From assembly GCA_944381185.1 (NCBI GenBank), contig CALWKE010000002.1, forward strand, positions 217,731 to 281,730: a stretch of DNA of 64,000 nucleotides. Direction: 5' to 3'. The DNA is from an uncultured Clostridia bacterium (GTDB lineage Bacteria > Bacillota > Clostridia > Christensenellales > UBA1242). The translations under genes were made by a program, and so were the position numbers. Below the pieces are notes generated by a model. It saw only the letters and a list, made by a program, of their open reading frames with translations, was not told the origin of the DNA and did not search any database. Of this stretch, positions 15,340-64,000 are shown piece after piece; positions within the stretch are counted from its first letter, which is position 1, and every line of letters begins with the position of its first letter.

Positions 15340-15902
15340 AATGTAGACTTAAATCGTCTTTCCCTTTTATTTCTAACCTTAAAAATTTCATTTAAAAATT
15401 TAGTTTTCCAAAATTCACTTTCATTAAAAAGATTTTTACTTGCTAAAAATTCACTAACAACTCCATAACATAGTATCTTTTTTAAAGTATCAGAAATTTT
15501 CAATTCAGAATCTAAAGTTGAAATTTCTGGTGGAAGATATTTATAATTGACAAAATATGTTTTATTTGATTCAGACAACAAAATATGGTCAGAATATATT
15601 TTAAAATTTACGACATTATTAAATTCGTCATAAATATAAAGAATTTTAAGTGGAGCAAAATCAAATTTATAATAATATATATTTTTATTTGAATCAGAAG
15701 ATATTGGTTGAGTGTGAGTTATTTCTAAATAATTTTCACAGAGTGATGAAAATGTGTAGTTAAAATAATTAATTAATCTTAAAATATCATTTCTAATTTG
15801 TTCATTTTCAATATCAGAAATATCATTTGTGTTTTGAAGTGCAACAATTATATCGTCACGATTTAATAACATTGCACACTTTATTAAAAAGTTTTTTAAC
15901 AT
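15330..15902 (-). CDS. Putative head-tail adaptor or head-completion protein
   Basis: 190 aa, second gene after the capsid gene. Assignment rests on position only. Confidence 0.35.
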   Translation of the reverse strand: MLKNFLIKCAMLLNRDDIIVALQNTNDISDIENEQIRNDILRLINYFNYTFSSLCENYLEITHTQPISSDSNKNIYYYKFDFAPLKILYIYDEFNNVVNFKIYSDHILLSESNKTYFVNYKYLPPEISTLDSELKISDTLKKILCYGVVSEFLASKNLFNESEFWKTKFLNEIFKVRNKRERRFKSTFCK

Positions 15903-15904
15903 TG

Positions 15905-16288
15905 TTAGCCCTCGATTATTTTATTTATATCACCTTTTGAAATATTTGAAGTTCGTTTTGAATAATTAATCAGTTCAACAGATTTCAGGGTAACATTATC
16001 TTTTAATTTTTTTATATTTTTATTTGTTAAATTATAATTATATTTATCAATATTTTTAAATAATAAATTGCTTTGTTCGATTCGTGTTGATTGCAAATAT
16101 TTTATCAAATTCAATGATAATGAATTGGTTTTTAAGCAAATTTGATTGTTTTTTGCAGTATTTATAACAATAAAACATTTTTCTTTATTATTAAATAATA
16201 ACTTATAATTTACATCTATTTTGGTTATTAAATTATAATAATTAAACATATCTTTATATGGAACGCAATATTTAAGTATATTTTTCAT
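15905..16288 (-). CDS. Hypothetical phage head-associated protein
   Basis: 127-aa ORF directly after the capsid gene and its stem-loop. Confidence 0.35.
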   Translation of the reverse strand: MKNILKYCVPYKDMFNYYNLITKIDVNYKLLFNNKEKCFIVINTAKNNQICLKTNSLSLNLIKYLQSTRIEQSNLLFKNIDKYNYNLTNKNIKKLKDNVTLKSVELINYSKRTSNISKGDINKIIEG

Positions 16289-16302
16289 ATATTATCCTTA
16301 AA

Positions 16303-16330
16303 TTAAATCCACACTTATGTGTGGATTTAA
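16303..16330 (-). other. Perfect 12-bp stem-loop immediately after the capsid gene stop
   Basis: Plus strand reads ttaaatccacac-ttat-gtgtggatttaa. On the minus strand it is not followed by a clean U-tract. Confidence 0.6.
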
Positions 16331-17518
16331 TTATGATTCACTAATTCCAGTAATTTTGGCTTGTCCGCTTGGCTTATTGCAAATAATGTCAGCATACTTA
16401 ACAAGTGTAGCTTGGTATGTTGGTTTTCCAAGAGTTTGTTTAATTACCCTGCCATCTTCACCTTCAAGCCAGCTCCAATCACAAAGTTGATGTAAATTAA
16501 ATTCACTTGTGTTAAGCAAAAACATTGTATTTTCAGGTGCAAATCTGTCAGAAACAACAGGAATGCCATTATAAGAAATGGCTTTAAAACCACCTTCAAG
16601 ATTCATTACATCAACATTGCTTCTGTAAGATGAAAGGTATGATTGATAATTTCTTTTTACTCCAGCCGAGCAAACTATAAAGTCTACTTTACTGTCAGCA
16701 GTTTCTTCAAGTTCATCAATTGCTTTTTGCATAACAACTTCAGAAATATTTGTTGTGCTAGTAGATTTGATATCTTTAATATAAGGAACCATCCAAGAAT
16801 AAGAACTTCTGTCAAGTCCATAAAGTGTTCCTGATGATTTAAAAATAGCACCAAGTCCAGTAATTTCATTGTTGTATGAACCTTGAACACAAAGGCTATA
16901 ACCAGTTTTAAAGGCACTAGCACTAAATGACGCTGTTTCAAAAGAAACAATTTTATTTGTTCTATCAATTGATTTAATTCTCAATGATTTTCCATTTGAT
17001 GCTTGTGTTCCATCTTCATCTTCAATAATATCAACGACCATGCCTTCCATTAAATTTTTAACACTATCAACTGTAACAGTTGTTGTTGTGTTTTCTGTTA
17101 TAGAAGCAAGTTTTCCACTTCCGTCGCCATAAAGCATTCTACCAAAATTAAATGCACTGGCCTTAATAAGACCATCCATTTCGGCATTAAGTAAGTTGAC
17201 AAAAGCACCAGCAGAACTTTCAGATGCTCGAATTGCTTTGTCAGAAATTTCAATTCTTCCATAAAGGTTTTTTAAACTTAAAACAAATTGAGCATAATTG
17301 TTGCCCGCAGAAGATGGCAAATTACCATCTTCAGTTCCTGCACCAATACCACCATTTAATCCGTAAGGTGCAAGTTTTCTTATTTCTTTTCCCCAAACAT
17401 CAGCAGTTGTTTGATTAATTTTTGCAAGAAGTGGATTGATAGAAGTGTTAAGTTGATTTGAAAGCACGCCAAGATAAACTTCTTTTAATGCACTATCTGC
17501 AGTAGTTAAAGTTACCAT
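16331..17518 (-). CDS. Major capsid protein (probable HK97 fold)
   Basis: 395 aa, directly downstream of the portal and scaffold genes. Gly/Ser/Ala-rich composition unlike the rest of the window. Size and position fit an MCP. Confidence 0.8.
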   Translation of the reverse strand: MVTLTTADSALKEVYLGVLSNQLNTSINPLLAKINQTTADVWGKEIRKLAPYGLNGGIGAGTEDGNLPSSAGNNYAQFVLSLKNLYGRIEISDKAIRASESSAGAFVNLLNAEMDGLIKASAFNFGRMLYGDGSGKLASITENTTTTVTVDSVKNLMEGMVVDIIEDEDGTQASNGKSLRIKSIDRTNKIVSFETASFSASAFKTGYSLCVQGSYNNEITGLGAIFKSSGTLYGLDRSSYSWMVPYIKDIKSTSTTNISEVVMQKAIDELEETADSKVDFIVCSAGVKRNYQSYLSSYRSNVDVMNLEGGFKAISYNGIPVVSDRFAPENTMFLLNTSEFNLHQLCDWSWLEGEDGRVIKQTLGKPTYQATLVKYADIICNKPSGQAKITGISES

Positions 17519-17526
17519 AAATTCTC

Positions 17527-18132
17527 CTATTTAAGCATTTTTGAAAATATTTCCCCAGCCTCTTTTACTGTTCTTGGCTTATTTTCATTTGGCGAAAAAT
17601 AAATATTTGTTGAATTGCCAGCAATAACTTTTGGGCTTTGTGAAATATTATTTAAATTAGACAAATAGTCAGAAATTATTTTTTCTTTTATTTCATTATT
17701 TGAAAAAATGTATTTGTCTAAATATTCTGGATTGTTTAAAAGATTTGCAGATTTATTAGATGCAGACTTGGCGATTTTTAATGCAATTTGGTATCTATTT
17801 GGCAGATTATTAATTTCATTATCATTAATCAAAATCTCCTCGATATCCTTTTTATATTCATCCATACCAGACTTATTTAAAAACTCGTCAAGTGTTTCAT
17901 TATTTTGAAAAAACGCACTTTCTCCATATTCTTTCTGAAATTCTGCTAATTTTTGGCTTTTTCTCGTAAATTCTGCTTCTAAATTGTTATATGCGTCTAA
18001 CAAACTTTTTACATCTTTAAACTTTCCGTAAATAGAGCCGTCTTGATTTTCTGAATCAAAATTATTTTGAATTTGTTCAGTTTCAAGAACAGGTTGTTCT
18101 ATAATTTTATCTTCCATATATACCTCATTCAT
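17527..18132 (-). CDS. Scaffolding protein
   Basis: 201 aa, acidic and helical, lying between the portal and capsid genes. Confidence 0.6.
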   Translation of the reverse strand: MNEVYMEDKIIEQPVLETEQIQNNFDSENQDGSIYGKFKDVKSLLDAYNNLEAEFTRKSQKLAEFQKEYGESAFFQNNETLDEFLNKSGMDEYKKDIEEILINDNEINNLPNRYQIALKIAKSASNKSANLLNNPEYLDKYIFSNNEIKEKIISDYLSNLNNISQSPKVIAGNSTNIYFSPNENKPRTVKEAGEIFSKMLK

Positions 18133-19984
18133 TTATAAAATTTTTATGTTCTTTGATATGATTTAATAACTTTAATTTAAATTCGCTATCAATATTTTCA
18201 TTGTTAGATATAATATATTTTGTGTGTTCATCTATATGAATTTTGTGATTATCAATTTCAAGTGGACTTTCAAGTTTGATTAATTTTAAATTTTCGTTAT
18301 TTGCACGTTTTGAATGCAAGTCGTCAATGTCTTGAGTTATTTCCCAATTATCTAGTCCTAGCATTTTTAGTAATCTATTTTTATTGCTTGAACTTATTTT
18401 TCCTGATGAATCAAATAATATTCCCTTATCATAAAGTGAAAGGATTAAATCTTTTTTATTATAACTATTTTCTTCTAATTCATTTTTAGAATCTAAAACA
18501 ACATCGTCAGCAGTTATATCACTGTTTTTCCAATAGAACACTTCAATTGAACCATTTTTATCGGTAAATTTATCTAATCTTGTCTGCGTTGCGAATTGTT
18601 TGTATAATCTTAAAATATATTCACCGATTTTCTTTATAGACTCTCTAATGTATTCTGCTGTCAGTGATAGTCTGGTTTCATCTTGTTCAATTAAAAGATT
18701 TAAGGCTGAACCACTATTAATTCCAGTTGGAACATTGGTTGTTGTTGTAACATCGCTAACACAACAAAGATTATTGAGTTCACTTAAAAGCATGGTTTCT
18801 TCATTTTCAAGTTCAGAAGGAATGCTTCCTGCATCTAAAAATTTTGGTGGTGTTGAACCATTTCTATATACTAAAATTTTTCCGGGAGCTAAACCTTCAT
18901 CTTCAAGATTGTCAATATCAACTGAACCATCTTCAACACTCAAAACACCACTTGCAAGTCTTTCAATAAATTCATGTTTTTTATTTTTTATTGCGTTATA
19001 ACTTCGTTGAATTGGGATTGACCTTTCTATGACACTGATACCCCAAAATGATGAAATTTGTTTTGTTGAAACTTGTTTAATAAAAGGATATGTTAATTCA
19101 TTATTTTTTCCGATTTTATATGGCAAATCACCATCGTATAGTAATTTATTTTTACAGATAATAGTTAGTTTTCCATTTGTATTTCTGTTATTTGGTTTTT
19201 CGTATCTTTCAATTACTAAAACGTGATTATGTTTCGTATTATGAGAAATTTTTGTGATGTTGCTTCTGCCAGAAATTCCAGATAAAAAACTAGAGTTATT
19301 TAATTCACAAATATCAATATCTTCACCATCAAGATTTAATCCCCACGATTTATTAATATTTTCAACAGGAACGGCCCTTGCTTCAATTATTGATTCGCAA
19401 TCTTCTATTTCAATTGCTCCATTTGAATCAGGATATATTTCAAATGGTGAACAAACAGAAACTTGAGCATCTCCATTTTTAATTAAGTTTCCGTCGATTT
19501 TTCCAATGACATTTCCAAGAGAATCATTCCATGAAACTTTATAAAAACTCGTTCCTGTAATTTCACTCCAAGCATTAGCTGTAGATATTAATGATTTTAA
19601 AGAGTTTTTTTCGATAAAACTTTGAAGAATAGAGTTTGCTAAATTTGCAGAAAATAAATCATTTTCTGAATTACTTGCGGGTTTAACTGTTAAATTAGGT
19701 TTTATTTTATTCAATTTAGCTAGTCTGGTTTCAATTATTGGTGCAATATGGTTATAAACTTCTCTATTTTCCCAATAATAATGTTTTTCAATGTCAGTAA
19801 GTTCTCCAGAATTAGAAATGTAGGTGTATTGATTACCCACATAAAAATTCATATTTAATTCCCATGCAAGTTCATATGGTCTTCTTTCTTGTTGCCTTCG
19901 TTTGAAATCTTGTGTTATCGAATCAACAATAATTTTATCCTCAATTTCTGAATAGAAGAATTTTTCTTTATTTTTCTGTTTCAT
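18125..19984 (-). CDS. Portal protein
   Basis: 619 aa, between terminase and scaffold. N-terminal RRQQERRPYELAWELNMNFYVGNQY resembles portal N-termini. Confidence 0.8.
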   Translation of the reverse strand: MKQKNKEKFFYSEIEDKIIVDSITQDFKRRQQERRPYELAWELNMNFYVGNQYTYISNSGELTDIEKHYYWENREVYNHIAPIIETRLAKLNKIKPNLTVKPASNSENDLFSANLANSILQSFIEKNSLKSLISTANAWSEITGTSFYKVSWNDSLGNVIGKIDGNLIKNGDAQVSVCSPFEIYPDSNGAIEIEDCESIIEARAVPVENINKSWGLNLDGEDIDICELNNSSFLSGISGRSNITKISHNTKHNHVLVIERYEKPNNRNTNGKLTIICKNKLLYDGDLPYKIGKNNELTYPFIKQVSTKQISSFWGISVIERSIPIQRSYNAIKNKKHEFIERLASGVLSVEDGSVDIDNLEDEGLAPGKILVYRNGSTPPKFLDAGSIPSELENEETMLLSELNNLCCVSDVTTTTNVPTGINSGSALNLLIEQDETRLSLTAEYIRESIKKIGEYILRLYKQFATQTRLDKFTDKNGSIEVFYWKNSDITADDVVLDSKNELEENSYNKKDLILSLYDKGILFDSSGKISSSNKNRLLKMLGLDNWEITQDIDDLHSKRANNENLKLIKLESPLEIDNHKIHIDEHTKYIISNNENIDSEFKLKLLNHIKEHKNFINE

Positions 19985-20147
19985 ACTTATCTTTTATCCT
20001 TTTCATTGAATTAAATAAATTTTTAAAACATGTTTCACATAGATATGAATCACCTTTAAAACTATTTGTTTCTAAACGATATTTTGCTTTTTTATTGCAC
20101 ATTATAGTATCGCATTTAGTAATAAAAATTGGTGTACTAATTTTCAT
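19968..20147 (-). CDS. Small (59 aa) Cys4 zinc-ribbon-like protein, not in the ORF track
   Basis: My translation is MKISTPIFITKCDTIMCNKKAKYRLETNSFKGDSYLCETCFKNLFNSMKRIKDKYETEK. GGAG lies 7 nt upstream of ATG 20147. Cys spacing is C-x4-C-x19-C-x2-C. The ORF overlaps the portal start by 17 nt. Confidence 0.45.
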   Translation of the reverse strand: MKISTPIFITKCDTIMCNKKAKYRLETNSFKGDSYLCETCFKNLFNSMKRIKDKYETEK

Positions 20148-20577
20148 TTGATATCTCCGATATTAGTTTATTTTTTAAATTAATCAATTCTTCATTAGAC
20201 ATGTTTTCTATATCATTAATATCTATCTCCTTCCTAAAAATTTCAAATAGAATTTTAATAGCAAGCATATCAGGCGGAATATAATGCGTGGTAATTTTCT
20301 TTTTAACGAGAGTAAGGTTTTCATTGGTTTGCTTAAAGTTTTCTGGTTTTCCATTTGATACTTCAATGATATCACTAGATTTATAAATATCAGTATTACC
20401 CCTGTCAATTTTATCAAAAAAACTTATATTTTCGCATTTTTGATTATCTTTTTTAGAATTATCTGCTAATTTTTGCGTTTTTTCATATTCTAATAATTCT
20501 TCATTATAGAAGAATCCAGAAGCTTTTTTTATAAGAATTTTAATTAAATCGTTTTCATTAAATTTGCTTTTGCTCAT
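20137..20577 (-). CDS. Hypothetical phage protein
   Basis: 146 aa, start overlaps the TerL stop. No motif recognised. Confidence 0.4.
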   Translation of the reverse strand: MSKSKFNENDLIKILIKKASGFFYNEELLEYEKTQKLADNSKKDNQKCENISFFDKIDRGNTDIYKSSDIIEVSNGKPENFKQTNENLTLVKKKITTHYIPPDMLAIKILFEIFRKEIDINDIENMSNEELINLKNKLISEISNEN

Positions 20578-22007
20578 AACCTCTTTTTTAAAAGTTTAAT
20601 AAACTTTTCTTTATTTTTTAATAAATCAGATTTTTTTGTTGTTTCAAATTTATTGTTAATGCTCATAATGTAATAACGAAGTTCGTCCATTGAATGGTCA
20701 TCATGTTTTGTAGGTGAATCGTTTCCACCCCACCTATAACTTTTAATTTCTCTAATCATATTTGTGCAATTAGAAAAGATAAATAATTTAGATGTTCCAT
20801 TTATATTTTTTAAATATGATTTTACTTTTGATATTCCCGATAACACATCTTTGTTTACATTAGAATTACATAAAATTCCATTTTCATAAAAAAGTTCGAC
20901 TACACTTTTTTGTGATGATAATGTTCTTTGATTTGCTGCACTGTCAATAATGGTTTCAATCATACCATTTGAAGCTGTTTTCCATTTTAAATTGTTTGAT
21001 ATTTCTTTAATTTTGTTAGAATGGTATTCTATTGTTTTATTTGAAGCATAATGCTCTGCAACAACATAAATATTTCCGTCATAATCTTTTGCATACCAAT
21101 GGCATGAAAGTGGGTTTGATAATCCCGGGTCGATTGAAATGTTATCTTGCCAATCAGATGGGATATTGAAGGGTTCAATAACATTAACACTTGGGTCAAA
21201 TTCTGTGTATATTAATCCGCAATCAATTGATGAAAACCTTCCATATTTTCGGCTCTCTATTTCATCTTTAGGCAAAGTGTTTGAAAGTCTTTCAAGTTCC
21301 TTTTTATTTAAGAAAGGATTATCTTCCCACGACATAAATTCGTAGAATACTTCTGGGTCATTTGAATTATTTAGATAAATTTCATTATAGATAAATGTCA
21401 ATCCCTTAAGAGGTGTCATTGTTCCAAAAATTTCACCACATTTGTCAAGAACTCTCATTTTGCATTCGTTATATATATCTTCAGGAGGTTCTTCATCAAA
21501 CCAAACAAAATCTAAACTTGCACCTTGAAATTTTTCTCGTCCTTCTTCGCAAGATTTAAACCAAATTTTACTAGTCAAACCAAATATATTTTTTAAAACT
21601 ATACATTCAATAACACCCTGTTCAGGTGCAGATTTTTTACCTTCAGTCATAATGATGTCTTGAATATAATTCTTGGGTAAATATTTTAAGATTTTCGCCT
21701 GTGCCACTTCTTTTTGAACTCTTGTTGATAGACTAACAACCCAACATTCTGTTTGTTTTTTATTTTGTTTGAAAGGATGAATTCCTAGTGATATCCAAAT
21801 AGTTTCAACAGCACCACATTCTGTTTTTCCTGTTCGATTACCGCCAAAGACCCACCTATTTCGTTTCGTTGATTTATGAAATTGGATTTGTTTTTCGTGG
21901 ACTATTTTTCCAGTATTATATTTCAATAAAGGTAGCAAATTTCTTTTTTCAATTTCTTTTAAAAGTTTAATTAATTTAATAATATTGTTTTTATTCATAA
22001 TATTCAA
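20574..22007 (-). CDS. terL: Terminase large subunit
   Basis: 477 aa. Walker A-like FGGNRTGKTECG, Walker B LDFVWFDEEP, and a C-terminal RNaseH-like nuclease region (IDPGLSNP..DSAANQ..HDDHSMDELRY). Confidence 0.9.
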   Translation of the reverse strand: MNIMNKNNIIKLIKLLKEIEKRNLLPLLKYNTGKIVHEKQIQFHKSTKRNRWVFGGNRTGKTECGAVETIWISLGIHPFKQNKKQTECWVVSLSTRVQKEVAQAKILKYLPKNYIQDIIMTEGKKSAPEQGVIECIVLKNIFGLTSKIWFKSCEEGREKFQGASLDFVWFDEEPPEDIYNECKMRVLDKCGEIFGTMTPLKGLTFIYNEIYLNNSNDPEVFYEFMSWEDNPFLNKKELERLSNTLPKDEIESRKYGRFSSIDCGLIYTEFDPSVNVIEPFNIPSDWQDNISIDPGLSNPLSCHWYAKDYDGNIYVVAEHYASNKTIEYHSNKIKEISNNLKWKTASNGMIETIIDSAANQRTLSSQKSVVELFYENGILCNSNVNKDVLSGISKVKSYLKNINGTSKLFIFSNCTNMIREIKSYRWGGNDSPTKHDDHSMDELRYYIMSINNKFETTKKSDLLKNKEKFIKLLKKRL

Positions 22008-22081
22008 TAAAGTTATTTGAGATGCTAAAATTAGACAAAAATCGCATTTTTTATTAAAAATAATTGAAATATAATATCAAT

Positions 22082-23056
22082 ATGAAAAAAATTTTGATAT
22101 TTTTATCTATTTTAGTTTTGTTTGTAAATGTTAAATTTTGCAATAAAAATGTTTTTGCCACAGCTGAAAATGCTAAATATGCAAAGGCACTTGCAAACTG
22201 CAAATTATATTTGACAGATGATTTAACAGACTCAATTGACAATGTTAAATTTATAATTCCAGAATCATATTTTGTTTTAATTATTGGTCAAATTAATGAT
22301 AATTGCTATTATGTTCAATATGATAAGTTTGTTGGTTATGTTGAATCATCAACAATTACATTAGCAACTTTTATTCCTGAAAATAAAACACTTACAGACA
22401 TTACATGTGAAATTAAATCGTCATCAGGAACGCAAATTTGGTCAAAACCTTCAGTTGCTAGTGGTGAAGTTCTTTCAACAATATCAGCAGGCACAAAAAA
22501 TATTAATTATATTGCATCAATTTATGGTGAAATACCATCAGGTGGTGAAACTAATCTTTGGTATTTTGTTTCATATACTCCGATAACAAATCCAACTGAT
22601 GTTTATGAAGGATATATTTATAGCGAAAATACAATAAATTTATCTAACATACCAATTAATAATGAAAGCAATCCTGAATTAAATAATTCTTCAAATTCAA
22701 ACAATAATAATAAAATAATTATTTCATCGTCATTTCAAACAATTATCATAGCAATAATAGCAATTCCTATTATTTTATTAATTTCAATTATTTTGTATAA
22801 ATTGATAAAAAAATTGCAAGAAAATACAAATAAAAGAAATTTTCAAAATGAAAAATATGAAAAATTAAATTTAAATGCAATTAATTATTATAATCATGAA
22901 GATGAAAGAAAGATAAACTTAAAATCACAAATTGATAATCTTTCACGCAAATCATTTATTCGTAAGAAGCGTCACACATTAACAAATGTTTCACCTATCA
23001 GTCAAAAAAATTATCCTGAATTTCCGAATTATGATTCTGAAGATGATTTATTATGA
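22082..23056 (+). CDS. Membrane protein: signal peptide, two SH3b-like domains, one TM helix, then a Lys/Asn-rich cytoplasmic tail
   Basis: The track start at 22064 is a TTG. ATG 22082 gives MKKILIFLSILVLFVNV. SH3b-like pattern: CKLYLTDDL..FVLIIGQINDNCYYVQYDKFVGYVESSTI plus a second copy ending YEGYIYSENT. TM helix IIIAIIAIPIILLISIILY. Confidence 0.65.
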   Translation: MKKILIFLSILVLFVNVKFCNKNVFATAENAKYAKALANCKLYLTDDLTDSIDNVKFIIPESYFVLIIGQINDNCYYVQYDKFVGYVESSTITLATFIPENKTLTDITCEIKSSSGTQIWSKPSVASGEVLSTISAGTKNINYIASIYGEIPSGGETNLWYFVSYTPITNPTDVYEGYIYSENTINLSNIPINNESNPELNNSSNSNNNNKIIISSSFQTIIIAIIAIPIILLISIILYKLIKKLQENTNKRNFQNEKYEKLNLNAINYYNHEDERKINLKSQIDNLSRKSFIRKKRHTLTNVSPISQKNYPEFPNYDSEDDLL

Positions 23057-23725
23057 AACAGATTTTTGCACTGCTTCATTTTCGGTAACATATGTTTTTG
23101 AATGATTATTATTTTTATATTGATAGTTTGCATTTTTAAAGTAGTCACTTACAATTTTTATAAATTTTTCTTTTAACCAAGTTTCTTGCTTTATTTGGCT
23201 TTCTATAAATCGAAGTGACCAATTTTTTGAAATTGCTCTGCTGTGAATCAAATTTATTATTCTGTCAATTTTTCGATATATTGTTCTAGCAGAAATATTA
23301 AATTCTTTTGAAAGATCTTCAGTTGACCAATTATAAACAAATCTTTTTTCAATAAAATTTAAATCTTCATCTGAAAGGTTTTTAACAAGTTCTTTTGTCA
23401 TAATATAGATGTTTAAAAGAGAGTTTTTTCTCTGTGACAAATCAATCAACGATTCAACTTGATTAATAAGTGAATTACTTCCATTAAAAACATCTGACGA
23501 AAATGAAACAGTTGATGCTTGAAGCTCGATAATTTTATCTACGGTTTTTATAATTTCAGGTATAGTGTTATAAGAAGCAAGAAGTGTTTTAATCCAAAAT
23601 TTAAATTTTGTGTCATCATCCATTTCAGATAAAAAATTTTTTATTAGTTGTTTTTTTGTTTGTTTTGAAATTTTATCTAACTTAAAATTTTTTATGTTAG
23701 ATTTGATTTTAGCCTTTGTATCCAT
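23051..23725 (-). CDS. Sigma-70 region-4-like HTH transcription regulator (candidate Xpf/ArpU/RinA-type late activator)
   Basis: 224 aa. LSDEDLNFIEKRFVYNWSTEDLSKEFNISARTIYRKIDRIINLI resembles a sigma region 4.2 HTH. The gene is co-oriented with the phage operon and divergent from the giant ORF. Confidence 0.55.
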   Translation of the reverse strand: MDTKAKIKSNIKNFKLDKISKQTKKQLIKNFLSEMDDDTKFKFWIKTLLASYNTIPEIIKTVDKIIELQASTVSFSSDVFNGSNSLINQVESLIDLSQRKNSLLNIYIMTKELVKNLSDEDLNFIEKRFVYNWSTEDLSKEFNISARTIYRKIDRIINLIHSRAISKNWSLRFIESQIKQETWLKEKFIKIVSDYFKNANYQYKNNNHSKTYVTENEAVQKSVS

Positions 23726-56784: not shown

Positions 56785-56813
56785 ATTTTATACCTATATT
56801 TAAAATTTGTCAA
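56785..56813 (-). promoter_or_regulatory. Sigma-A type promoter of the NUDIX gene, giving a very short leader
   Basis: Minus strand has TTGACA (56813..56808), 17-nt spacer and TAAAAT (56790..56785). The ATG at 56770 is 14 nt downstream of the -10 box, and no SD is visible. Confidence 0.5.
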
Positions 56814-56828: not shown

Positions 56829-58634
56829 TTAAATTTTATCTTCACTATTGTTTTTAATTAAACTGATATGAATTTCTTCAATTTGTTTATCGGTTACAAA
56901 ATCAGGTGCTTCCATAACAAGGTCTGCACTTGTTTGAATTTTAGGAAATGCAATAACTGACTTAATATCAGATGAACCTGAAAGTAACATAACAAGCCTG
57001 TCAAGTCCAAAGGCTAACCCACCATGTGGTGGTGCACCATATTTAAATGCTTCAATGAAAAATCCAAAAAGTTCGTTAATTTTCTTATCATCCATACCAA
57101 GTGCTTCAAACATTTTAGCCTGAAGTTCAGGGTCATGAATTCTAATACTTCCACCACCAACTTCATATCCGTTGATAACAATATCATATGCTTTTGCATA
57201 TACTTTTTCAGGACTGGTTAACAAATATTTAATACAGTCATCTTTAGGAGCAGTAAACGGATGATGAAGTGCAACAAATCTTTCTTCTTCATCACTATAT
57301 TCAAATTCAGGAAAATCAACAACCCAGAGTGCATTAAATTTTGATTTATCAATTAAATCAAACTTTTCAGCAAGATGAAGTCGAAGTTTGCCAAGAGCAG
57401 TTAAAACAATTTTATTTTTTGCATCAGCCACAAAGAATATAACATCGCCTTTTGTTGCATTAGTTCTCTTAATAATTTCATCAATTTGTTCTTTTGTAAA
57501 GAATTTTAATAAAGGACTCTTTGGAGTATCTTCTTCAAAAGTAATATAACTCATGCCCGGAGCACCAGTTCCCTTGACAAAAGTAACAAGTTTTTCAAGT
57601 TCAGTTCTAGATAATTTTTCAAACATTCCCTTTCCGTTAATAACACGAACACTGCCACCTTGAAGCACTGCATTTTTAAATGGAACAAGTGTGCAATCTT
57701 TTGCTAGGTCAGAAATATCAACAAGTTCAAGTCCAAATCTTGTATCTGGCTTATCAGAACCATATTTTGACATGGCTTCATCATAAGTAATTCGTGGTAA
57801 TGTCCCTAGATCATAGCCAATTGTGTCTTTGAAAATTTTAACAAAAAGTTTTTCAGTTATTTGCATAACTTGTTCTTCTTTATCAACAAAAGACATTTCC
57901 ATATCGACTTGAGTAAATTCTGGTTGCCTGTCAGCTCTTAAATCTTCATCTCTAAAACATTTTGCAATTTGATAATATCTATCAATACCAGAAATCATTA
58001 AAAGTTGTTTATAAAGTTGTGGACTTTGTGGAAGAGCAAAAAACTTGTTTGGAAAAACTCGGCTAGGAACTAAATAATCTCTAGCACCCTCTGGAGTAGA
58101 TTTTCCAAGAATTGGGGTTTCAACTTCAATAAATGAATTGTTATCAAAAAAATCACGAACAATTTTACATATCTCGTTTCGCAAAAGAAGTTTTTGCATA
58201 ACAACATCTCTTCTAATATCAAGATACCTGTATTTTAATCTAACAGAATCTGAAGGACTGTCGTCTTCGTTAATTTGAAAAGGTATTGGCAAACTTTTCG
58301 CTAATACTTTCATTTTAACAGCACGGATTTCAATATATCCAGTTTTGCTTTTTGGATCAATAGTATCTTCTTCTCTTTTTACAAGTTTTCCACAAACTGA
58401 AATAACAAATTCATTTCTTAATTTGTCAACTTTATCATAATCATCTAAAAATTTTGACCTATCAAAAACAACTTGAAGTTTACCAGTTCTGTCACGAAGG
58501 TCAACAAACACAAGGTCACCAAAATCCCTTCTGTTAGCAACCCAACCATGTGCAACAACTTCACTATCCAAATCATCAGTAGTAAATTCTCCACAAAATT
58601 TTGTTCGTTCTAATCCATCTAAAATATCTAACAT
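56829..58634 (-). CDS. aspS: Aspartate--tRNA ligase
   Basis: Colinear with bacterial AspRS, including the OB-fold N-terminus HGWVANRRDFGDLVFVDLRDRTG and class II motifs (FRDEDLRADRQPEFTQ, GGGSIRIH, GLAFGLDR). I moved the start to ATG 58634 (MLDILDG), which has AAGGAGA 6 nt upstream. The track start at 58673 lies inside the terminator/leader. Confidence 0.93.
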   Translation of the reverse strand: MLDILDGLERTKFCGEFTTDDLDSEVVAHGWVANRRDFGDLVFVDLRDRTGKLQVVFDRSKFLDDYDKVDKLRNEFVISVCGKLVKREEDTIDPKSKTGYIEIRAVKMKVLAKSLPIPFQINEDDSPSDSVRLKYRYLDIRRDVVMQKLLLRNEICKIVRDFFDNNSFIEVETPILGKSTPEGARDYLVPSRVFPNKFFALPQSPQLYKQLLMISGIDRYYQIAKCFRDEDLRADRQPEFTQVDMEMSFVDKEEQVMQITEKLFVKIFKDTIGYDLGTLPRITYDEAMSKYGSDKPDTRFGLELVDISDLAKDCTLVPFKNAVLQGGSVRVINGKGMFEKLSRTELEKLVTFVKGTGAPGMSYITFEEDTPKSPLLKFFTKEQIDEIIKRTNATKGDVIFFVADAKNKIVLTALGKLRLHLAEKFDLIDKSKFNALWVVDFPEFEYSDEEERFVALHHPFTAPKDDCIKYLLTSPEKVYAKAYDIVINGYEVGGGSIRIHDPELQAKMFEALGMDDKKINELFGFFIEAFKYGAPPHGGLAFGLDRLVMLLSGSSDIKSVIAFPKIQTSADLVMEAPDFVTDKQIEEIHISLIKNNSEDKI

Positions 58635-58663
58635 AATATTTCTCCTTTTTATTACTTTAAATG

Positions 58664-58695
58664 AAAAAAGCACATCCGAGTTATTTCGAATGTGC
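58664..58695 (-). terminator. Attenuator terminator in the aspS leader
   Basis: Minus strand reads GCACATTCGA-AATAAC-TCGGATGTGC (10 bp, one G-U) followed by TTTTTT. It ends 16 nt before the aspS RBS. Confidence 0.75.
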
Positions 58696-58746
58696 CAAAC
58701 ATTAAAATTTTAACAATTAACAAAATAACCCATTTAATAATGTGCT

Positions 58747-58788
58747 TTAGTCGTTATTATTGTTATTATTGTTAATAAATCTTTTCAT
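58747..58788 (-). CDS. Leader peptide MKRFINNNNNNND (seven Asn codons then one Asp codon) upstream of aspS
   Basis: Minus strand reads GAGGT-aact-ATG AAA AGA TTT ATT AAC AAT AAT AAC AAT AAT AAC GAC TAA. It lies between a near-consensus promoter and the attenuator terminator. Confidence 0.6.
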   Translation of the reverse strand: MKRFINNNNNNND

Positions 58789-58810
58789 AGTTACCTCAAT
58801 AAACAATAAA

Positions 58811-58839
58811 ATATTATCATAATTATTCACTAATGTCAA
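58811..58839 (-). promoter_or_regulatory. Sigma-A type promoter of the aspS leader
   Basis: Minus strand has TTGACA (58839..58834), 17-nt spacer and TAATAT (58816..58811). Confidence 0.7.
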
Positions 58840-58966
58840 TAACTTTTAAATAATTTACAAAAAGTTATATTTATATAATTGATAATATAATTTAATAAAT
58901 AAAATTTTACAACAAATATGCAATTTTATATCAATATTTCATTTAAAATAAATAAATTTTGCGTTT

Positions 58967-59560
58967 TTATAAATTAATAATATAATTATAAATATCTTTC
59001 CAATTGCTAAAATAAACAATGTTTTTATTAACAAATGATTTTTTTATTTCATTTGTTATTCTAATTGTTTTTATACCTAAAAGAGCAGAAGCTGTGCAAT
59101 TTGTTAAACTATCATCAATAAATAAATCTATTTTTTGATTTTGAATTTCAATAGACTTATTTTTAGCATTAACAACAATTTTATCATACATTATGTTATT
59201 TTTATCAAGCCAATCTTTGCTTAATTTATATGGGTCTTCATGAAAAACAGTATCTCTTGCTGTTATTATAATAATTTTATTGCCCATTGCTTTTAATTTA
59301 TTAATTGCTTGAACTGCAAAATCTCTTGGCTTTGCGTTGTTCATAATTTCTTCCTGAATATCTCGCATAAAAAACATGAATTCATCATCATTAAAATTAA
59401 AATATTTTTGATAACATGAACCATCATTTTTTACATCTTCAATAATTTTATTTGTTTTTGGCAAAGGTTTCCCCAACTCTTTTAAATAATTAAATCCACT
59501 ATTATAAAATTCTTTTTTTATATCAGTTATTGTATCGTCTATATCAACCCCAATATTCAT
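58967..59560 (-). CDS. HAD-superfamily hydrolase, 5'(3')-nucleotidase-like
   Basis: 197 aa. HAD motif I DIDDT at residues 6-10, motif II IIIITARD, motif III/IV K..DLFIDDS. RBS GAAGGTG. Confidence 0.6.
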   Translation of the reverse strand: MNIGVDIDDTITDIKKEFYNSGFNYLKELGKPLPKTNKIIEDVKNDGSCYQKYFNFNDDEFMFFMRDIQEEIMNNAKPRDFAVQAINKLKAMGNKIIIITARDTVFHEDPYKLSKDWLDKNNIMYDKIVVNAKNKSIEIQNQKIDLFIDDSLTNCTASALLGIKTIRITNEIKKSFVNKNIVYFSNWKDIYNYIINL

Positions 59561-59583
59561 TTATCACCTTCTAAATTAATTTT

Positions 59584-59645
59584 AAATAAAAATGCGAACT
59601 TTAGATTTGAGTTAAAACTATTAAAACTCGCATTCAAGTTCGCAT
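59584..59645 (-). terminator. Long hairpin terminator downstream of tRNA-Leu
   Basis: Minus strand has ATGCGAACTT...AAGTTCGCAT (10-bp outer stem with an inner GAGTT/AACTC helix) followed by TTTTATTT. Confidence 0.6.
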
Positions 59646-59655
59646 TATTAAAATT

Positions 59656-59741
59656 TGGTGCCGAAGGCGGGACTTGAACCCGCACGAAGTTACCCTCAAC
59701 AGATTTTGAGTCTGTCGTGTCTGCCATTTCACCACTTCGGC
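59656..59741 (-). tRNA. tRNA-Leu (anticodon CAA), class II long variable arm, CCA encoded
   Basis: Minus strand reads GCCGAAGTGGTGAAATGGCAGACACGACAGACTCAAAATCTGTTGAGGGTAACTTCGTGCGGGTTCAAGTCCCGCCTTCGGCACCA. Acceptor stem GCCGAAG/CTTCGGC, anticodon stem ACAGA/TCTGT with loop CU-CAA-AA, T-arm GCGGG-TTCAAGT-CCCGC. Confidence 0.93.
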
Positions 59742-59825
59742 AAATTATTTATATGTCACTTAACGAGAACTATAATAACATATAAACAATTTTTTTGCAA
59801 TAAAAATTAATAAATTTAATTTATT

Positions 59826-60557
59826 TTACCAAATCTCATCGCCTTCATTATCATCAGCATGCGACATAAAAGTTTCTTCATTGTCATTTTGTTTTTCAAT
59901 AAGTTTTTTCATCTTTTTGTTCTCACGCTGTTCTTTATTAAATTTATGTGCAATTTTTGATATTGTGTTAACAACAAAGTTGTATTTCATATAAGTATCT
60001 TCATTTGGTTCTTCATAAATATCTTCAATTTTAATTAAATGTTTCTCATCACCTGATGTGTTTAATGAAACATTATAGCCTAAAACTTCACCCGTTCTTG
60101 TGTTTATCATGCTAAGTAAACCTTTTGCATTAATTTTAACAAGACCCGCTGTGTCGTTATTAAAAATAAAGAAATTTGAACTTTTATCAAATTCACCAAC
60201 ATAATCACATAAAAAATAATTATCACGAAGTTCTGAATTATCTGAATAAACTTTGTGAATTTTTACTTTTCTAATGCTTGCCTGTTCAAAATTTGAAGTA
60301 GCCGGAAAGTGTATTCCAAGTTTATCAAACATTGCCCTATCAAAACAACTTGAAATACTTTCTTGAGATTGCAGATGCATTTGGTTTATGCAGTCAAGTT
60401 TATTATCTTGTTTTCTTACTCTTAAATATATATTGCCTTCATTATCATAAAGCCAAACTCTAACAACCTTATGCCATAAACCTTTATAATGAACATCAAA
60501 TTCATCTTCAGATGATTGAAAAACACCATTTTCATCAAATGTATCGTAATATTCCAT
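59826..60557 (-). CDS. Nudix-fold-like protein with a degenerate Nudix box
   Basis: 243 aa. The N-terminus, YYDTFDENG..HYKGLWHKVVRVWLYDNEGNIYLRVRKQDNK, matches the Idi/YfcD-like Nudix pattern. The box region reads QESISSCFDRAMFDKLGI, with REx2EE replaced by RAx2DK. The gene starts 9 nt after the cysS stop. Confidence 0.5.
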   Translation of the reverse strand: MEYYDTFDENGVFQSSEDEFDVHYKGLWHKVVRVWLYDNEGNIYLRVRKQDNKLDCINQMHLQSQESISSCFDRAMFDKLGIHFPATSNFEQASIRKVKIHKVYSDNSELRDNYFLCDYVGEFDKSSNFFIFNNDTAGLVKINAKGLLSMINTRTGEVLGYNVSLNTSGDEKHLIKIEDIYEEPNEDTYMKYNFVVNTISKIAHKFNKEQRENKKMKKLIEKQNDNEETFMSHADDNEGDEIW

Positions 60558-60566
60558 AATACCTCT

Positions 60567-61994
60567 TTATATTTTTTTATCTAAAACATCAACACCTAAT
60601 TCTATTAATTTGTCACGAATATAATCAGATAGTTGATAATTTTTTTCAGAACGCAATTTTGTTCTAATATCAGAAATCAAATTTAAAAGTTCAGAATCTT
60701 TAGTTTTATTTTCTGATTTTATTTTATCACAAACAAACTCTAATCCCAAAACATCTTCAACAACTTTTATAATAGAATTTATAATTATTAAGGTTTCTGA
60801 CTCATTATTTTTTAATGCATTACTTGCAAGTTTAGAAAGTTTTAAAACTTCTGCCATTGCAAGAGGTGTATTAAAATCATCACTCATAGCTGAAATAAAA
60901 TTATTATAAATTTCAGAAAGTTCATCATTATTTATTTTATTACTTTTTAAATTAATAATTTTGTTTAAAGATTTTTCTTTTACTTGTGAAAAATTTTCAA
61001 CAAGCTTGTCATACTGCTCTTTAACTTTGCTTATTGCATTAAAACTAAAATCAACTGGTTTTCTATAATGAAATTGCAAAATATAATATCTTATTAAAAG
61101 TGGGTCAAATTTTTCAAATAAATCATTAAGTGTGATGAAGTTACCTAAACTTTTACCCATTTTTGTTCCATTAACAGTAACAAGATTATTATGCATAAAA
61201 TAATTAACAAAAGGTTTTCCGTTAGCAACTTCACTTTGAGCAATTTCACTATCATGATGAGGAAATATATTATCAATTCCACCACCATGAATATCAAATG
61301 TTTCACCTAAAAATTTGCGGCTTAATGTTGAACATTCAATATGCCAGCCCGGATATCCAACTCCCCAAGGTGAATTCCATTTCATTATGTGTCCACCGAC
61401 TGCTGATTTCCATAAGGCAAAATCTTCCGGATATTCTTTATCATCTGCAACAGAGATTCGCTCTCCTGAAAGATTATTTTCAATTTTTCTATTTGAAAGT
61501 TTTCCATAATCAGAAAATTTATGAACTGAAAAGTAAACATTGCCCTGTTTTGTCACATAAGCATATCCTTTTTCAATTATTTTTTGGATAAATTCAATAA
61601 TATCAGGAATAAAGCCTGTTGCTCTTGCACTAATGGTTGGTCTTTTAATATTAAGCTTATCCATAAAATAAAAATATTCTGTTTCATATTTATATGCAAG
61701 TGCATATGGGTCAACATTCTCTTTTTGGGCTTGAACCAAAATTTTATCTTGACCATCATCACTATCACCAACCAAATGGCCAACATCAGTTATATTTTGA
61801 ACATATTTAACATTATAGCCAGCATATTCAAAAAATCTTCTAACAACATCAAAATTAACATAAGATTTTGCATGACCTAAATGTGGTGGACCGTAAACAG
61901 TTGGACCACAAACATACATTCCAACCCTTCCTTCTTGAATTGGTTTAAAAATTTCTTTTTTTCTTGACAATGAATTATAAATAAATATTTGCAT
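60567..61994 (-). CDS. cysS: Cysteine--tRNA ligase
   Basis: HIGH motif PPHLGHAKSY and KMSKS motif TKMGKSLGN, colinear with CysRS. I moved the start to ATG 61994 (MQIFIYNS), 6 nt downstream of GGAGG (62005..62001). The track start at 62000 abuts the RBS. Confidence 0.93.
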   Translation of the reverse strand: MQIFIYNSLSRKKEIFKPIQEGRVGMYVCGPTVYGPPHLGHAKSYVNFDVVRRFFEYAGYNVKYVQNITDVGHLVGDSDDGQDKILVQAQKENVDPYALAYKYETEYFYFMDKLNIKRPTISARATGFIPDIIEFIQKIIEKGYAYVTKQGNVYFSVHKFSDYGKLSNRKIENNLSGERISVADDKEYPEDFALWKSAVGGHIMKWNSPWGVGYPGWHIECSTLSRKFLGETFDIHGGGIDNIFPHHDSEIAQSEVANGKPFVNYFMHNNLVTVNGTKMGKSLGNFITLNDLFEKFDPLLIRYYILQFHYRKPVDFSFNAISKVKEQYDKLVENFSQVKEKSLNKIINLKSNKINNDELSEIYNNFISAMSDDFNTPLAMAEVLKLSKLASNALKNNESETLIIINSIIKVVEDVLGLEFVCDKIKSENKTKDSELLNLISDIRTKLRSEKNYQLSDYIRDKLIELGVDVLDKKI

Positions 61995-62007
61995 AAACAT
62001 CCTCCAA

Positions 62008-62039
62008 ACAAAAAAGATGAGCAGTTATCTACTCATCTT
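62008..62039 (-). terminator. Attenuator terminator in the cysS leader
   Basis: Minus strand reads AAGATGAG-TAGATAACTG-CTCATCTT followed by TTTTG, ending 2 nt before the cysS RBS. Confidence 0.7.
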
Positions 62040-62088
62040 AATATATTAGACAACTGAAAAAAACCTTATAAAAAGGTTAAAATTTTAT

Positions 62089-62115
62089 TCAGTTACAACA
62101 ACACATTTTTTTCAT
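62089..62115 (-). CDS. Leader peptide MKKMCCCN (three consecutive Cys codons) upstream of cysS
   Basis: Minus strand reads GAGGG-aaat-ATG AAA AAA ATG TGT TGT TGT AAC TGA, about 15 nt downstream of the predicted transcription start of a consensus promoter. Confidence 0.65.
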   Translation of the reverse strand: MKKMCCCN

Positions 62116-62136
62116 ATTTCCCTCAAATATACAAAA

Positions 62137-62165
62137 ATTATATACTAGCATTAAATTTATGTCAA
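62137..62165 (-). promoter_or_regulatory. Consensus sigma-A promoter of the cysS leader
   Basis: Minus strand has TTGACA (62165..62160), 17-nt spacer and TATAAT (62142..62137). Confidence 0.75.
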
Positions 62166-62175: not shown

Positions 62176-64000
62176 TTACAAATTCTTCCCCACAAAATAA
62201 CCAGACTGAATTATTGTTGCCATGTCACAAATTTCTAATGCGTTACCTATTAAAAAAAGTTGACCATTATATCCACTTTTTACCAACTCATAATATATTT
62301 TATTGTTTGGATATATATCTGGCTCATAAATAAATAGATCACAGTCAATTGTTTTTGCCTTTGCCTCAAAAGAATAATTTGATCCAGAAATATAATTTAA
62401 AATAAGTGATTGAAAATTTTTATTTTTCAATTTATTATTAACAAAAATCTCAATAAAATCCTCTTGAATATATTTAACTTTTGAAAAAGGATAAACTTTC
62501 GCTTTAAGTTTTTTAAAAGCAAACAAATAATAAGTAAGCCTATCATTTGGTATGTTTTTTAAAAAATCCATAGACTCAATTATTATTGATATTTTTTTAT
62601 TTTGATTCAAAAGATATAGAGCAAGTTTAAAAGATAATTCTGATTTTGCATTAATAACAATATGTTCTTTTTTTTCAAAAATTTTATATGAATCTAAACA
62701 ATCAAATATACTTTTAACATTTTTTAAAATAGCACCTGTAATGTTTAAAAATTTTTCGTGAAAACCAGATGCAACAACAATTGAACAATATTTTTTTAAA
62801 TCATAACTATTAACATCAAAATTTTTATTTAACAATAATGTAATATTTTCATGAAAATTATGAACTTCATTTTCGAGATAGTCGTTATAATCATTAAGCA
62901 ACTTATCATATCCAAAAATTTCGCACCTTCTTGAACTACTATTAATTTTATTATTTCTATCATAAATATCAACGCAAAAACCTCTTCTTGCAAGTGTTAT
63001 TGCACAAATAATTCCTGATAAACCTGCACCAATAATTGCAACTTTTTTTGTTTTATTATAGCTTGAAAATAATAGTGTTTTGTTTATTAGTTCTGGATTG
63101 ATTGCACACTCAATTTTACCATTTTTTTTCGATATTTGGTCACAAAATGAACATTTTATACAATTTTTAGATATTTTTTGCGTTTTTTCATTTAATAAAA
63201 ACCTGCTATCACTATAAATATTTTTAGTGACATCAAAAATATCAATTAAGTTATTATTTAATAATTGTTCACATAGTCTTAAATCATTATAATAATCTTT
63301 AATTAATATTTTAACTGGCAAATCAAACTTTGTTTTTAATGAAGTATTTTCAAAAAACTGTTTTATTTCTTTAACGAAATTTTCAAATAGATTTTCTTTT
63401 TGAAACTGATTAAAAGTTTTAAAAAATTCAGTTTCATATGTTCCAAATTCAAATATAAATGCGTCAACACCAAAGTTAACAAGTTGTGTTAAAAATTTAA
63501 ACAAATTAAAACCATTTTTGTTTATTTTAATATTTTTTATTGTGTTTATTTCTTTAATATTTTTTTCATAAACAATTTCAATAAATGAAGAAAGAGTTAT
63601 ATTATACACCAAATTAATGTTTTTGATTTCTGTAACAATTGATGAAATTATTTTAGATGGAAAATCAATTAATTCTGAAAAATAACCAAATTTTCTTCTA
63701 TTAAATTCATAGCTAGAAAACTCACCAACAATGCCGAATAAATTTCCATCAATAAGCACACCATCAAATCCTAAATTAATTGCCATTTTAGAAGCATTTT
63801 TATATTCTTCGACAATTTGATAACATTTGTTATCAGACAGCCTTACACATGGCAAATTTGCCTCATTATAAGATTTGTTATTTGATGCTGAATATGAAAA
63901 TATATTTAAAAACTTATTTTCATTGTCCGCTCTTCCATATATTGATTTTATTGTTAAAAATATTTTAGTTCCATATCTATGAATATTTGAAATCGTTTTA
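62176..64000 (-). CDS. Old-Yellow-Enzyme/2,4-dienoyl-CoA-reductase-like flavoprotein (TIM-barrel domain, Fe-S Cys motif, FAD/NAD(P) Rossmann domain). The 5' end lies beyond the right window edge.
   Basis: The track M at 63855 is an internal TTG. My translation stays open to nt 64000 (..IHRYGTKIFLTIKSIYGRA.., OYE-like). It contains CIKCSFCDQ..ECAINP (FadH-type Fe-S motif) and VAIIGAGLSGIICAITLARRG (a GxGxxG dinucleotide fold). Confidence 0.7.
   Translation of the reverse strand, partial: KTISNIHRYGTKIFLTIKSIYGRADNENKFLNIFSYSASNNKSYNEANLPCVRLSDNKCYQIVEEYKNASKMAINLGFDGVLIDGNLFGIVGEFSSYEFNRRKFGYFSELIDFPSKIISSIVTEIKNINLVYNITLSSFIEIVYEKNIKEINTIKNIKINKNGFNLFKFLTQLVNFGVDAFIFEFGTYETEFFKTFNQFQKENLFENFVKEIKQFFENTSLKTKFDLPVKILIKDYYNDLRLCEQLLNNNLIDIFDVTKNIYSDSRFLLNEKTQKISKNCIKCSFCDQISKKNGKIECAINPELINKTLLFSSYNKTKKVAIIGAGLSGIICAITLARRGFCVDIYDRNNKINSSSRRCEIFGYDKLLNDYNDYLENEVHNFHENITLLLNKNFDVNSYDLKKYCSIVVASGFHEKFLNITGAILKNVKSIFDCLDSYKIFEKKEHIVINAKSELSFKLALYLLNQNKKISIIIESMDFLKNIPNDRLTYYLFAFKKLKAKVYPFSKVKYIQEDFIEIFVNNKLKNKNFQSLILNYISGSNYSFEAKAKTIDCDLFIYEPDIYPNNKIYYELVKSGYNGQLFLIGNALEICDMATIIQSGYFVGKNL

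Follow-up and report, generated by a model that had tools for sequence, protein, structure and literature searches.

We studied the leaders of two aminoacyl-tRNA synthetase (aaRS) genes, cysS and aspS, which lie on the minus strand of a 64-kb stretch of DNA (here called the window; GC content ~28%) from an uncultured, Clostridia-type bacterium that is known from metagenome assemblies only, with identical proteins on ENA contigs. The gene survey of the window agreed with the original prediction that cysS and aspS are its sole aaRS genes. Both are preceded by the promoter, Shine-Dalgarno sequence (SD), mini-ORF (ORF, open reading frame) and terminator that had been predicted, all of them located on the minus strand. 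From the comparison of these sequences with those of related species, we consider it highly probable that both leaders are ribosome-mediated (leader-peptide) transcription attenuators of the classical type. The support is firmer for the aspS attenuator than for the cysS attenuator. The cysS locus is composed of the following parts.

60567-61994, minus strand: cysS, the gene under putative control, 475 aa (Pfam tRNA-synt_1e and DALR_2; homologues found)
62137-62165, minus strand: leader promoter with TTGACA (62165-62160), a 17-nt spacer and TATAAT (62142-62137), 12 of 12 consensus matches
62119-62124, minus strand: SD GAGGGA of the mini-ORF, from the sequence
62089-62115, minus strand: leader ORF MKKMCCCN followed by a stop, Cys codons at 62095-62103
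62088-62095, minus strand: segment 1, UAACUGAA, which shares nucleotides with the final Cys codon, the Asn codon and the UGA stop and pairs with segment 2
62062-62078, minus strand: small hairpin AACCUU/AAGGUU, then a U-rich run, seen in sequence and fold
62047-62058, minus strand: segment 2, UUCAGUUGUCUA, whose partner is either segment 1 or the terminator apex
62008-62039 (hairpin 62039-62014), minus strand: intrinsic terminator with an 11-bp stem, the loop AUAA and T6, from sequence and alignment
62022-62031, minus strand: segment 3, the terminator apex UAGAUAACUG, invariant in all relatives

TGA is a genuine stop codon in the window. The minimum free energy (MFE) fold pairs the end of the cysS mini-ORF, UAACUGAA, with UUCAGUUG and leaves the terminator intact. 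In the antiterminator, CAGUUGUCUA pairs instead with the terminator apex UAGAUAACUG over 10 bp. The small hairpin between the two segments may be a pause hairpin or part of an extended stem of segments 1 and 2 (1:2). The SD of cysS itself, GGAGG, follows the T-run of the terminator at a distance of ~4 nt. The parts of the aspS locus are listed below in the same manner.

56829-58634, minus strand: aspS, the gene under putative control, 601 aa, bacterial type with a GAD domain (Pfam tRNA_anti-codon, tRNA-synt_2 and GAD; homologues found)
58811-58839, minus strand: leader promoter with TTGACA (58839-58834), a 17-nt spacer, TAATAT (58816-58811) and a TG before the -10 box, from the sequence
58793-58797, minus strand: SD GAGGU of the mini-ORF, from the sequence
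58747-58788, minus strand: leader ORF MKRFINNNNNNND followed by a stop, with seven Asn codons at 58753-58773 that form segment 1
58740-58746, minus strand: AGCACAU, directly behind the mini-ORF stop, the basal 5' strand of the antiterminator, which pairs with the terminator 3' arm AUGUGCU
58710-58731, minus strand: segment 2, GGGUUAUUUUGUUAAUUGUUAA, which pairs with the Asn-codon run or, via GGGUUAUUUUG, with the terminator apex
58663-58696 (hairpin 58696-58669), minus strand: intrinsic terminator with an 11-bp stem, the loop AAUAAC and T6, from sequence and alignment
58678-58688, minus strand: terminator apex CGAAAUAACUC, the partner of GGGUUAUUUUG

Here the MFE fold pairs the run of Asn codons with GUUAUUUUGUUAAUUGUU, again leaving the terminator intact. 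The antiterminator has two parts, an apical one in which GGGUUAUUUUG pairs with CGAAAUAACUC over 11 bp, and a basal one formed by AGCACAU, which is a copy of the terminator 5' arm. The SD of aspS lies ~16 nt downstream of the terminator T-run. The expected complementarity of a middle segment to the terminator apex is thus present in both leaders (10 bp for cysS, 11 bp for aspS), and so is the predicted close spacing of the terminator to the ribosome-binding site of the synthetase (gaps of ~4 and ~16 nt). The further idea that both mini-ORFs use cognate codons held for cysS with its Cys run; the aspS mini-ORF is enriched in Asn and not in the cognate Asp, and the single Asp codon in the window's copy is not conserved. 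Taken together, both leaders combine the SD and start of a short ORF, a run of regulatory codons, an intrinsic terminator, and an antiterminator that is mutually exclusive with it, and in both the alternative partner of segment 2, segment 1, overlaps the stretch of the ORF that a stalled ribosome would cover.

Conservation, pairing and folding models

Relatives were found by protein searches (clade at 68-87% identity), and the contigs encoding them were fetched for the comparison of the leaders. Assemblies with these loci are ENA ERZ28614420, ERZ24773308 and ERZ28613423 and NCBI GCA_017467625.1, GCA_965350915.1 and GCA_017522705.1. Every clade member examined has the cysS leader, which gave nine distinct sequences from seven species-level lineages (CysRS identity 68-100%). 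Two to three consecutive Cys codons are present in eight of the nine, with synonymous variation between TGT and TGC. The peptides of the relatives, each closed by a stop codon, read MKKLCCNN, MKNLCCNN, MLKICCCN and MKKCCCN (four lineages, to 68% identity). TTGAC-17-TATAAT-like boxes stand at the same place in these leaders, a purine-rich SD precedes the mini-ORF in most of them, and the ACCUU..AAGGU hairpin recurs in every relative with varying loops. A deviant leader ORF, MIRHCYLY with a stop, was found in L171/L172 (9843-10003; GCA_017467625.1; 72% CysRS identity); segment 2 and the terminator apex are retained there, and segment 2 has its complement in another stretch of the ORF, UUAGACA. 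A metagenome-contig scan recovered CysRS relatives with 56-64% identity, whose intergenic regions are short and contain no leader.

The aspS leader was detected in five lineages including that of the window (AspRS identity 75-100%; the four further lineages at 75-87%). All five contain 5-8 consecutive Asn codons, in frame from start codons that are not homologous, and no Asp codon is conserved. The peptides of the relatives are MKKLINDNNNNNF, IKIINNNNNNNLKTHF (from a GTG start), MMIRVINNNNNNNSLSAYNYGLFLYC and MFMIINNNNNNNNSNTF, each followed by a stop. The TTGAC box is kept as well. The leader ORF of L175 continues through segment 2, an arrangement known from the E. coli trp paradigm. The clade member L001 (77% AspRS identity; region 1-215) has a TG-extended promoter and neither mini-ORF nor terminator before aspS, showing that the aspS leader is patchily distributed. 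No mini-ORF with an Asn run was found upstream of aspS in 80 genome loci, for some of which the gene starts are approximate. An early genome-contig scan with AspRS, in which L001 was the closest hit and the next ones had only ~55% identity, had suggested that the aspS leader is not conserved, a view overturned by the later protein searches.

The window contains 158 SD-preceded mini-ORFs of 5-30 codons, and a Cys run of at least three or an Asn run of more than three occurs only in the two described here. Across the 64 kb, the six reading frames together contain a single Asn run of at least six. When folding was compared with 200 dinucleotide shuffles, both leaders were better than all shuffles (z = -3.1 and -4.2). 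A comparison of the two leaders with each other gave only GUUAU/AUAAC in common, and we therefore treat them as independent. The original prediction had argued that two occurrences of one design make coincidence unlikely, and the mini-ORF count (2/158 with runs), the shuffles and the conservation across species all bear this out.

For the analysis of pairing, we aligned eight sequences of the cysS leader (74% mean column identity, AT-rich) and six of the aspS leader. In the cysS alignment, segment 2 and the terminator apex stand out as near-invariant blocks, segment 2 varying at one G/A position. Of the alignment cells, 98.9% are paired in the terminator stem, which has two compensatory positions, and 95% in the 1:2 helix, which has one compensatory pair; in the 10-bp antiterminator the figure is 100% for the eight sequences. 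As a control, we slid the 3' partners by 1-3 columns, whereupon the paired fraction fell to 23-52% for cysS and to 23-67% for both leaders together. The corresponding values for the aspS leader are 98.5% for the terminator stem, where three positions are compensatory, 86% for the 1:2 helix and 97% for the apical antiterminator. Additionally, the basal strand co-varies with the terminator, giving GCACAU/AUGUGC in the window and L175 (GCGCAU in L175) and ACACAU/AUGUGU in L173, L174 and L176. The co-variation is three-way: a change between G and A in the upstream strand and in the 5' arm of the terminator is matched by one between C and U in the 3' arm. A second, basal antiterminator strand was also sought in the cysS leader and gave only a weak 5-bp pairing of AAGGU with AUCUU and an SD-like GAG:CUC pairing, both of which we rejected as unconvincing. 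The multi-species conservation, the compensatory changes in the terminators and the conserved alternative pairings support the predicted common leader-peptide attenuator design.

We then modelled the translating ribosome by masking a 28-nt footprint at each codon and computing equilibrium ensemble probabilities. For aspS without a ribosome, the probability of the terminator is 0.95-0.97. Only with the masked A-site in a stretch that starts at the Ile codon before the Asn run does the two-part antiterminator take over; it peaks within the run at a probability of up to 0.97, and the basal AGCACAU pairing forms in the masked ensembles. The terminator returns with the ribosome at the last Asn codons and at the stop, because the ribosome then covers AGCACAU. 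This flip was reproduced in four of five homologues. Within the models, the predicted behaviour of the aspS leader is textbook trp-type logic.

For cysS the masking models are ambiguous, and we do not use them as support. Should the cysS antiterminator and the lower stem of the terminator coexist, they would constitute a pseudoknot with a connecting loop of zero length, which we judge to be sterically impossible, so that terminator and antiterminator should still exclude each other. The ambiguity of the equilibrium models suggests that the switch is kinetic, or that it depends on steric exclusion beyond the folding model. A kinetic switch is probable, and the ACCUU/AAGGU hairpin with its U-rich tail may serve as the pause site.

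Proposed mechanism and rival explanations

We propose that the strong promoter starts a leader RNA of ~130-170 nt. By default the mini-ORF would remain untranslated, or would be read to its stop with release of the ribosome; segment 1 would then pair with segment 2, and the downstream hairpin with its U-run would end transcription before the synthetase gene is reached. Under starvation, the scarce aminoacyl-tRNA would stall the ribosome on the regulatory codons, where it covers segment 1. The freed segment 2 could then pair with the terminator, and RNA polymerase would read into the gene. In the cysS leader, segment 2 would engage the terminator apex only, and the signal would be Cys-tRNA(Cys), the product of CysRS itself. 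In the aspS leader, segment 2 would take the apex and the strand behind the stop codon would pair with the whole 3' arm, the signal being Asn-tRNA(Asn). The stalling, the conditional read-through, the pausing at the cysS hairpin and an AspRS that does not discriminate between tRNAs are what we infer.

Several observations weigh against this attenuation model. The evidence for both leaders consists of sequence comparison and modelling, and the organism is uncultured. The antiterminator helices are backed by invariance and not by compensatory change, which makes them weaker evidence than the terminators. On the aspS side, the L175 leader shows no flip in the model, and the Asn logic presupposes, as a premise, that AspRS charges tRNA(Asn), that GatCAB is present and that AsnRS is absent or insufficient in the clade. 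On the cysS side, the terminator is kept at full-length equilibrium in five of seven homologues despite the masked ribosome, and with truncated transcripts several homologues adopt the antiterminator even when no ribosome is present. The cysS antiterminator extends over no more than the 10 apical nt of the terminator, the 8-bp lower stem formally staying free, and a ribosome at the leader stop codon would mask segment 1 just like a stalled one. The SD of the mini-ORF is weak or poorly spaced (distant) in L171, L176 and L184, and in the L171/L172 leader there is only one Cys codon, the SD is weak and the T-run is interrupted.

Some of the same data would fit a general translation-coupling sensor of ribosome supply or speed, in which the codon runs matter mainly as RNA, the Asn run being the partner of segment 2. 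Indeed, the Asn codons themselves are segment 1 and pair with segment 2, changes between AAU and AAC preserve G-C or G-U pairs, the end of the cysS ORF (Asn-UGA) is constrained by pairing, and the L171 cysS leader, if functional, works with one Cys codon. Yet in both leaders the amino acid of the run fits the charging product or the pathway of the gene. Pairing does not depend on the Cys codons, which precede segment 1; even so, eight of nine sequences retain them, with synonymous substitutions. Frame and start are also preserved from non-homologous start codons, and the Asn-specifier T-boxes on the aspS genes of relatives speak for selection on Asn-specific control. We regard the general sensor as improbable.

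The leaders could also be riboswitch-like, tRNA-binding or protein-binding elements, for example of an autoregulatory aaRS, with incidental mini-ORFs. The conservation of segment 2 and of the terminator apex goes beyond pairing and includes the sequence itself, and aaRS autoregulation via leader RNA is known from E. coli thrS, as a passage of PMC2965389 mentions. Against such an element stand the lack of any Rfam match and of a T-box core, and the shortness and AT-richness of the leaders, which have no conserved domain besides the alternative hairpins. It would also leave unexplained why two unrelated leaders, represented by a dozen sequences, have an SD, a start and in-frame runs of exactly those codons that are relevant, and we consider it very improbable. 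That there is no regulation at all, with hairpins as ordinary terminators or insulators of upstream genes, separate promoters and chance mini-ORFs, is hardly credible and effectively refuted by the comparative data: promoter-like hexamers are indeed frequent in AT-rich intergenic DNA (71 found, 60 expected) and short SD-preceded ORFs abundant, but the terminators lie downstream of the promoters and so would stop the aaRS transcripts themselves, the codon runs are confined to these two mini-ORFs, the elements are kept between species with 68-76% protein identity while the spacers diverge, and the terminator stems show compensatory changes.

Gene neighbourhood

In minus-strand reading, the order of the genes is FMN/FAD oxidoreductase (62176-63855, plus strand), cysS, a 243-aa ORF, tRNA-Leu(CAA), a HAD-like gene, aspS and a NUDIX gene. 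The 243-aa ORF sits behind cysS in every clade locus and is probably co-transcribed with it, which would place it under the cysS attenuator and thus under Cys regulation. A strong promoter-like site, TTGACA-17-TAAAAT (11 of 12; 56785-56813, minus strand), lies just upstream of the NUDIX gene, directly past the aspS stop. The further features of the window are as follows.

59826-60557, minus strand: 243-aa ORF, no Pfam match, starting 9 nt past cysS
59656-59741, minus strand: tRNA-Leu(CAA) gene between aspS and cysS (Rfam scan), with its own promoter-like site at 59800-59772
3808-4132, minus strand: RNase P RNA, class A, 250 bits in the Rfam scan

The remainder consists of a prophage-like block, housekeeping genes and an ORF of 9979 aa. 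The prophage-like block (~9959-23725) encodes a holin, an SU10-like capsid protein (weak match), a P22-like portal, a large terminase and an HTH protein. The giant 9979-aa ORF (24153-54092, plus strand) has a lipoprotein-like signal (..FVAC) and hydrophobic C-terminal segments, is rich in S, N, Y and T, and has no precomputed Pfam match. A second giant gene of ~11,400 aa lies beyond the right end of the window (L081 1-4204, L083 1-7564), and both giant genes converge on the cysS-aspS island. Clade members on long contigs have the same island flanked by giant genes of ~9,000-12,500 aa. The flanks fetched beyond the window contain no further aaRS gene; helicase, LepA and HrcA-GrpE-DnaK genes lie to the left, and the giant gene of ~34 kb to the right.

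Asparagine codons, T-boxes and known systems

Other Clostridia, examined at 11 of the more distant aspS loci from the genome-contig scan, carry T-boxes directly upstream of aspS (~50-300 nt). In the RF00230 alignment, the specifier, whose position we take from the general architecture of T-boxes, is AAC (Asn) in nine of 11 cases (L023, L059, L060, L064, L067, L068, L070, L073 and L080, compared with L028 and L055) and GAC (Asp) in two of 11. The assumed position holds an Asn or Asp codon in every case, which supports its reading as the specifier, and nine Asn specifiers out of 11 indicate that control of aspS by the charging of tRNA(Asn) is common in Clostridia. A 2012 study by Saad et al. in J Biol Chem, cited in PMC4206432, reportedly concerns such Asn-specifier T-boxes on clostridial aspS. 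By analogy, the aspS leader seems to be the counterpart of an Asn T-box, with the ribosome as mediator. Asn sensing would make sense for a non-discriminating AspRS whose product Asp-tRNA(Asn) is then amidated by GatCAB; general background on this route is given in PMC2330236 and PMC3367201, and a C. acetobutylicum T-box case is cited as ref. 18 in PMC4206432. Asn is also the commonest residue of the window's proteins (9.6%).

A side observation concerns the RRD-x-G motif of AspRS. The residue x is Met in nine of nine enzymes linked to Asn T-boxes and Phe in the clade of the window (residue 38 of the window's AspRS; codon within 58520-58525, minus strand); enzymes whose gene has an Asp or His T-box, and those of the nearest outgroup, have Leu there, apart from a single Lys. 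As judged from these sequences, residue x may be a marker of tRNA(Asn) acceptance.

A scan for the T-box family RF00230 at the gathering score covered the window, clade loci of ~137 kb in total and the loci of the nearest outgroups, and it gave no match; the clade loci all cover one genomic neighbourhood, with cysS and aspS as the aaRS genes covered. The Rfam scan of the window at gathering score returned RNase P RNA and tRNA only, and a scan of the leaders at E up to 10 gave no T-box and no known leader family. Core-motif and Rfam searches of the leaders detected no T-box core (GGUGGNACCNCG, antiterminator bulge), no Stem I and no specifier loop. The same searches detected T-boxes in other loci, which served as a positive control. 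The nearest outgroups have neither T-box nor leader on cysS or aspS; the data thus show a gain within the clade, not a demonstrated swap. That both of the two aaRS genes have leader peptides raises the prior for more of them in the clade. We nevertheless think it unlikely that the clade has largely or entirely dropped T-boxes for leader-peptide control of its aaRS genes, including an Asn-tRNA(Asn) sensor on a non-discriminating AspRS.

If this lineage-wide reading were true, it would amount to a change of sensing system within Bacillota, and the aspS leader would be without precedent among known leader peptides in sensing the product of tRNA-dependent transamidation. On the attenuation model itself, two comparatively supported cases in Clostridia, on the primary cysS and aspS genes, would extend aaRS attenuation in Firmicutes. 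Sister lineages would meet the same need by no leader, a T-box or a leader peptide, suggesting rapid turnover of sensing systems. The poly-Asn aspS leader would constitute a natural Asn-tRNA(Asn) sensor of compact size, and its presence could be used in bioinformatic surveys to flag AspRS enzymes as non-discriminating; the 8-codon Cys leader, among the shortest attenuators of its type, is a possible small part for synthetic biology. Annotation pipelines that use only Rfam will miss aaRS regulation in such metagenome-assembled genomes.

Leader-peptide attenuation of aaRS genes is known from E. coli pheST and from trpS and leuS of Streptomyces (PMC1262725). For Firmicutes its classical form was long said to be absent (PMC1262725), and one case in an aaRS family has been reported since: in bacilli, hisS paralogues are preceded by a His leader peptide that is said to replace T-boxes (PMC2965389). 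A leucine-rich attenuator peptide is described for S. aureus (PMC5794164), and a Cys-codon upstream ORF (uORF) before cysS of Rhodobacterales is interpreted as an attenuator (PMC8632094). Given these precedents, the claim of a regulatory regime undescribed for the phylum was too strong.

The E. coli attenuators of pheST and of trp, his, thr and leu resemble the leaders described here in their promoter, their SD-preceded ORF with a codon run, the 1:2, 2:3 and 3:4 hairpins and a terminator just before the gene; in pheST the regulated gene is likewise an aminoacyl-tRNA synthetase. In contrast, our leaders are from Clostridia, have no sequence similarity to them and encode much shorter peptides (8-13 codons). 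Their antiterminators pair with the terminator apex, in cysS with the apex only and not with the whole 5' arm, and the aspS leader would sense a non-cognate amino acid, Asn.

With the cysS leader, the motif uORFC-8-2 of the Rhodobacterales cysS (PMC8632094) shares the tandem Cys codons, the stems, the terminator and the inferred response to Cys-tRNA(Cys). By its description, however, it is restricted to alpha-proteobacteria, and its Cys codons are usually codons 14-15 of a longer peptide, compared with codons 4-7 of 7-8 here. There is no detectable sequence relation between the two, nor an Rfam match for our leader, and they are probably independent inventions. Cys runs near the end of a short ORF and Cys-responsive attenuation are also features of the polycysteine uORFs by which Mycobacteria and other Actinobacteria control cys operons (PMC1262725; bioRxiv 10.1101/834739). 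They differ in being leaderless, in controlling biosynthetic operons and not cysS, and in having no intrinsic terminator or antiterminator hairpins (PMC1262725).

The His leader of the hisS paralogues/hisZ in bacilli (PMC2965389) is, like ours, a leader-peptide attenuator in Firmicutes on a gene of an aaRS family; it differs in amino acid, gene and class, and it controls paralogues, whereas cysS and aspS appear to be the sole copies at our locus. Finally, the Asn-specifier T-boxes on clostridial aspS share with the aspS leader the gene, the inferred signal, i.e., the charging of tRNA-Asn, and antitermination as the output. The T-box is a tRNA-binding RNA of ~200 nt, whereas in the aspS leader the sensor would be the ribosome that translates the Asn codons. 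Our literature search, whose coverage was incomplete, gave no report of a leader peptide with Asn codons, nor of a leader peptide that controls aspS or cysS in Clostridia. Attenuation of this type is a well-known mechanism; both clostridial examples, together with the control of an aspartate enzyme gene by Asn codons, appear to be new.

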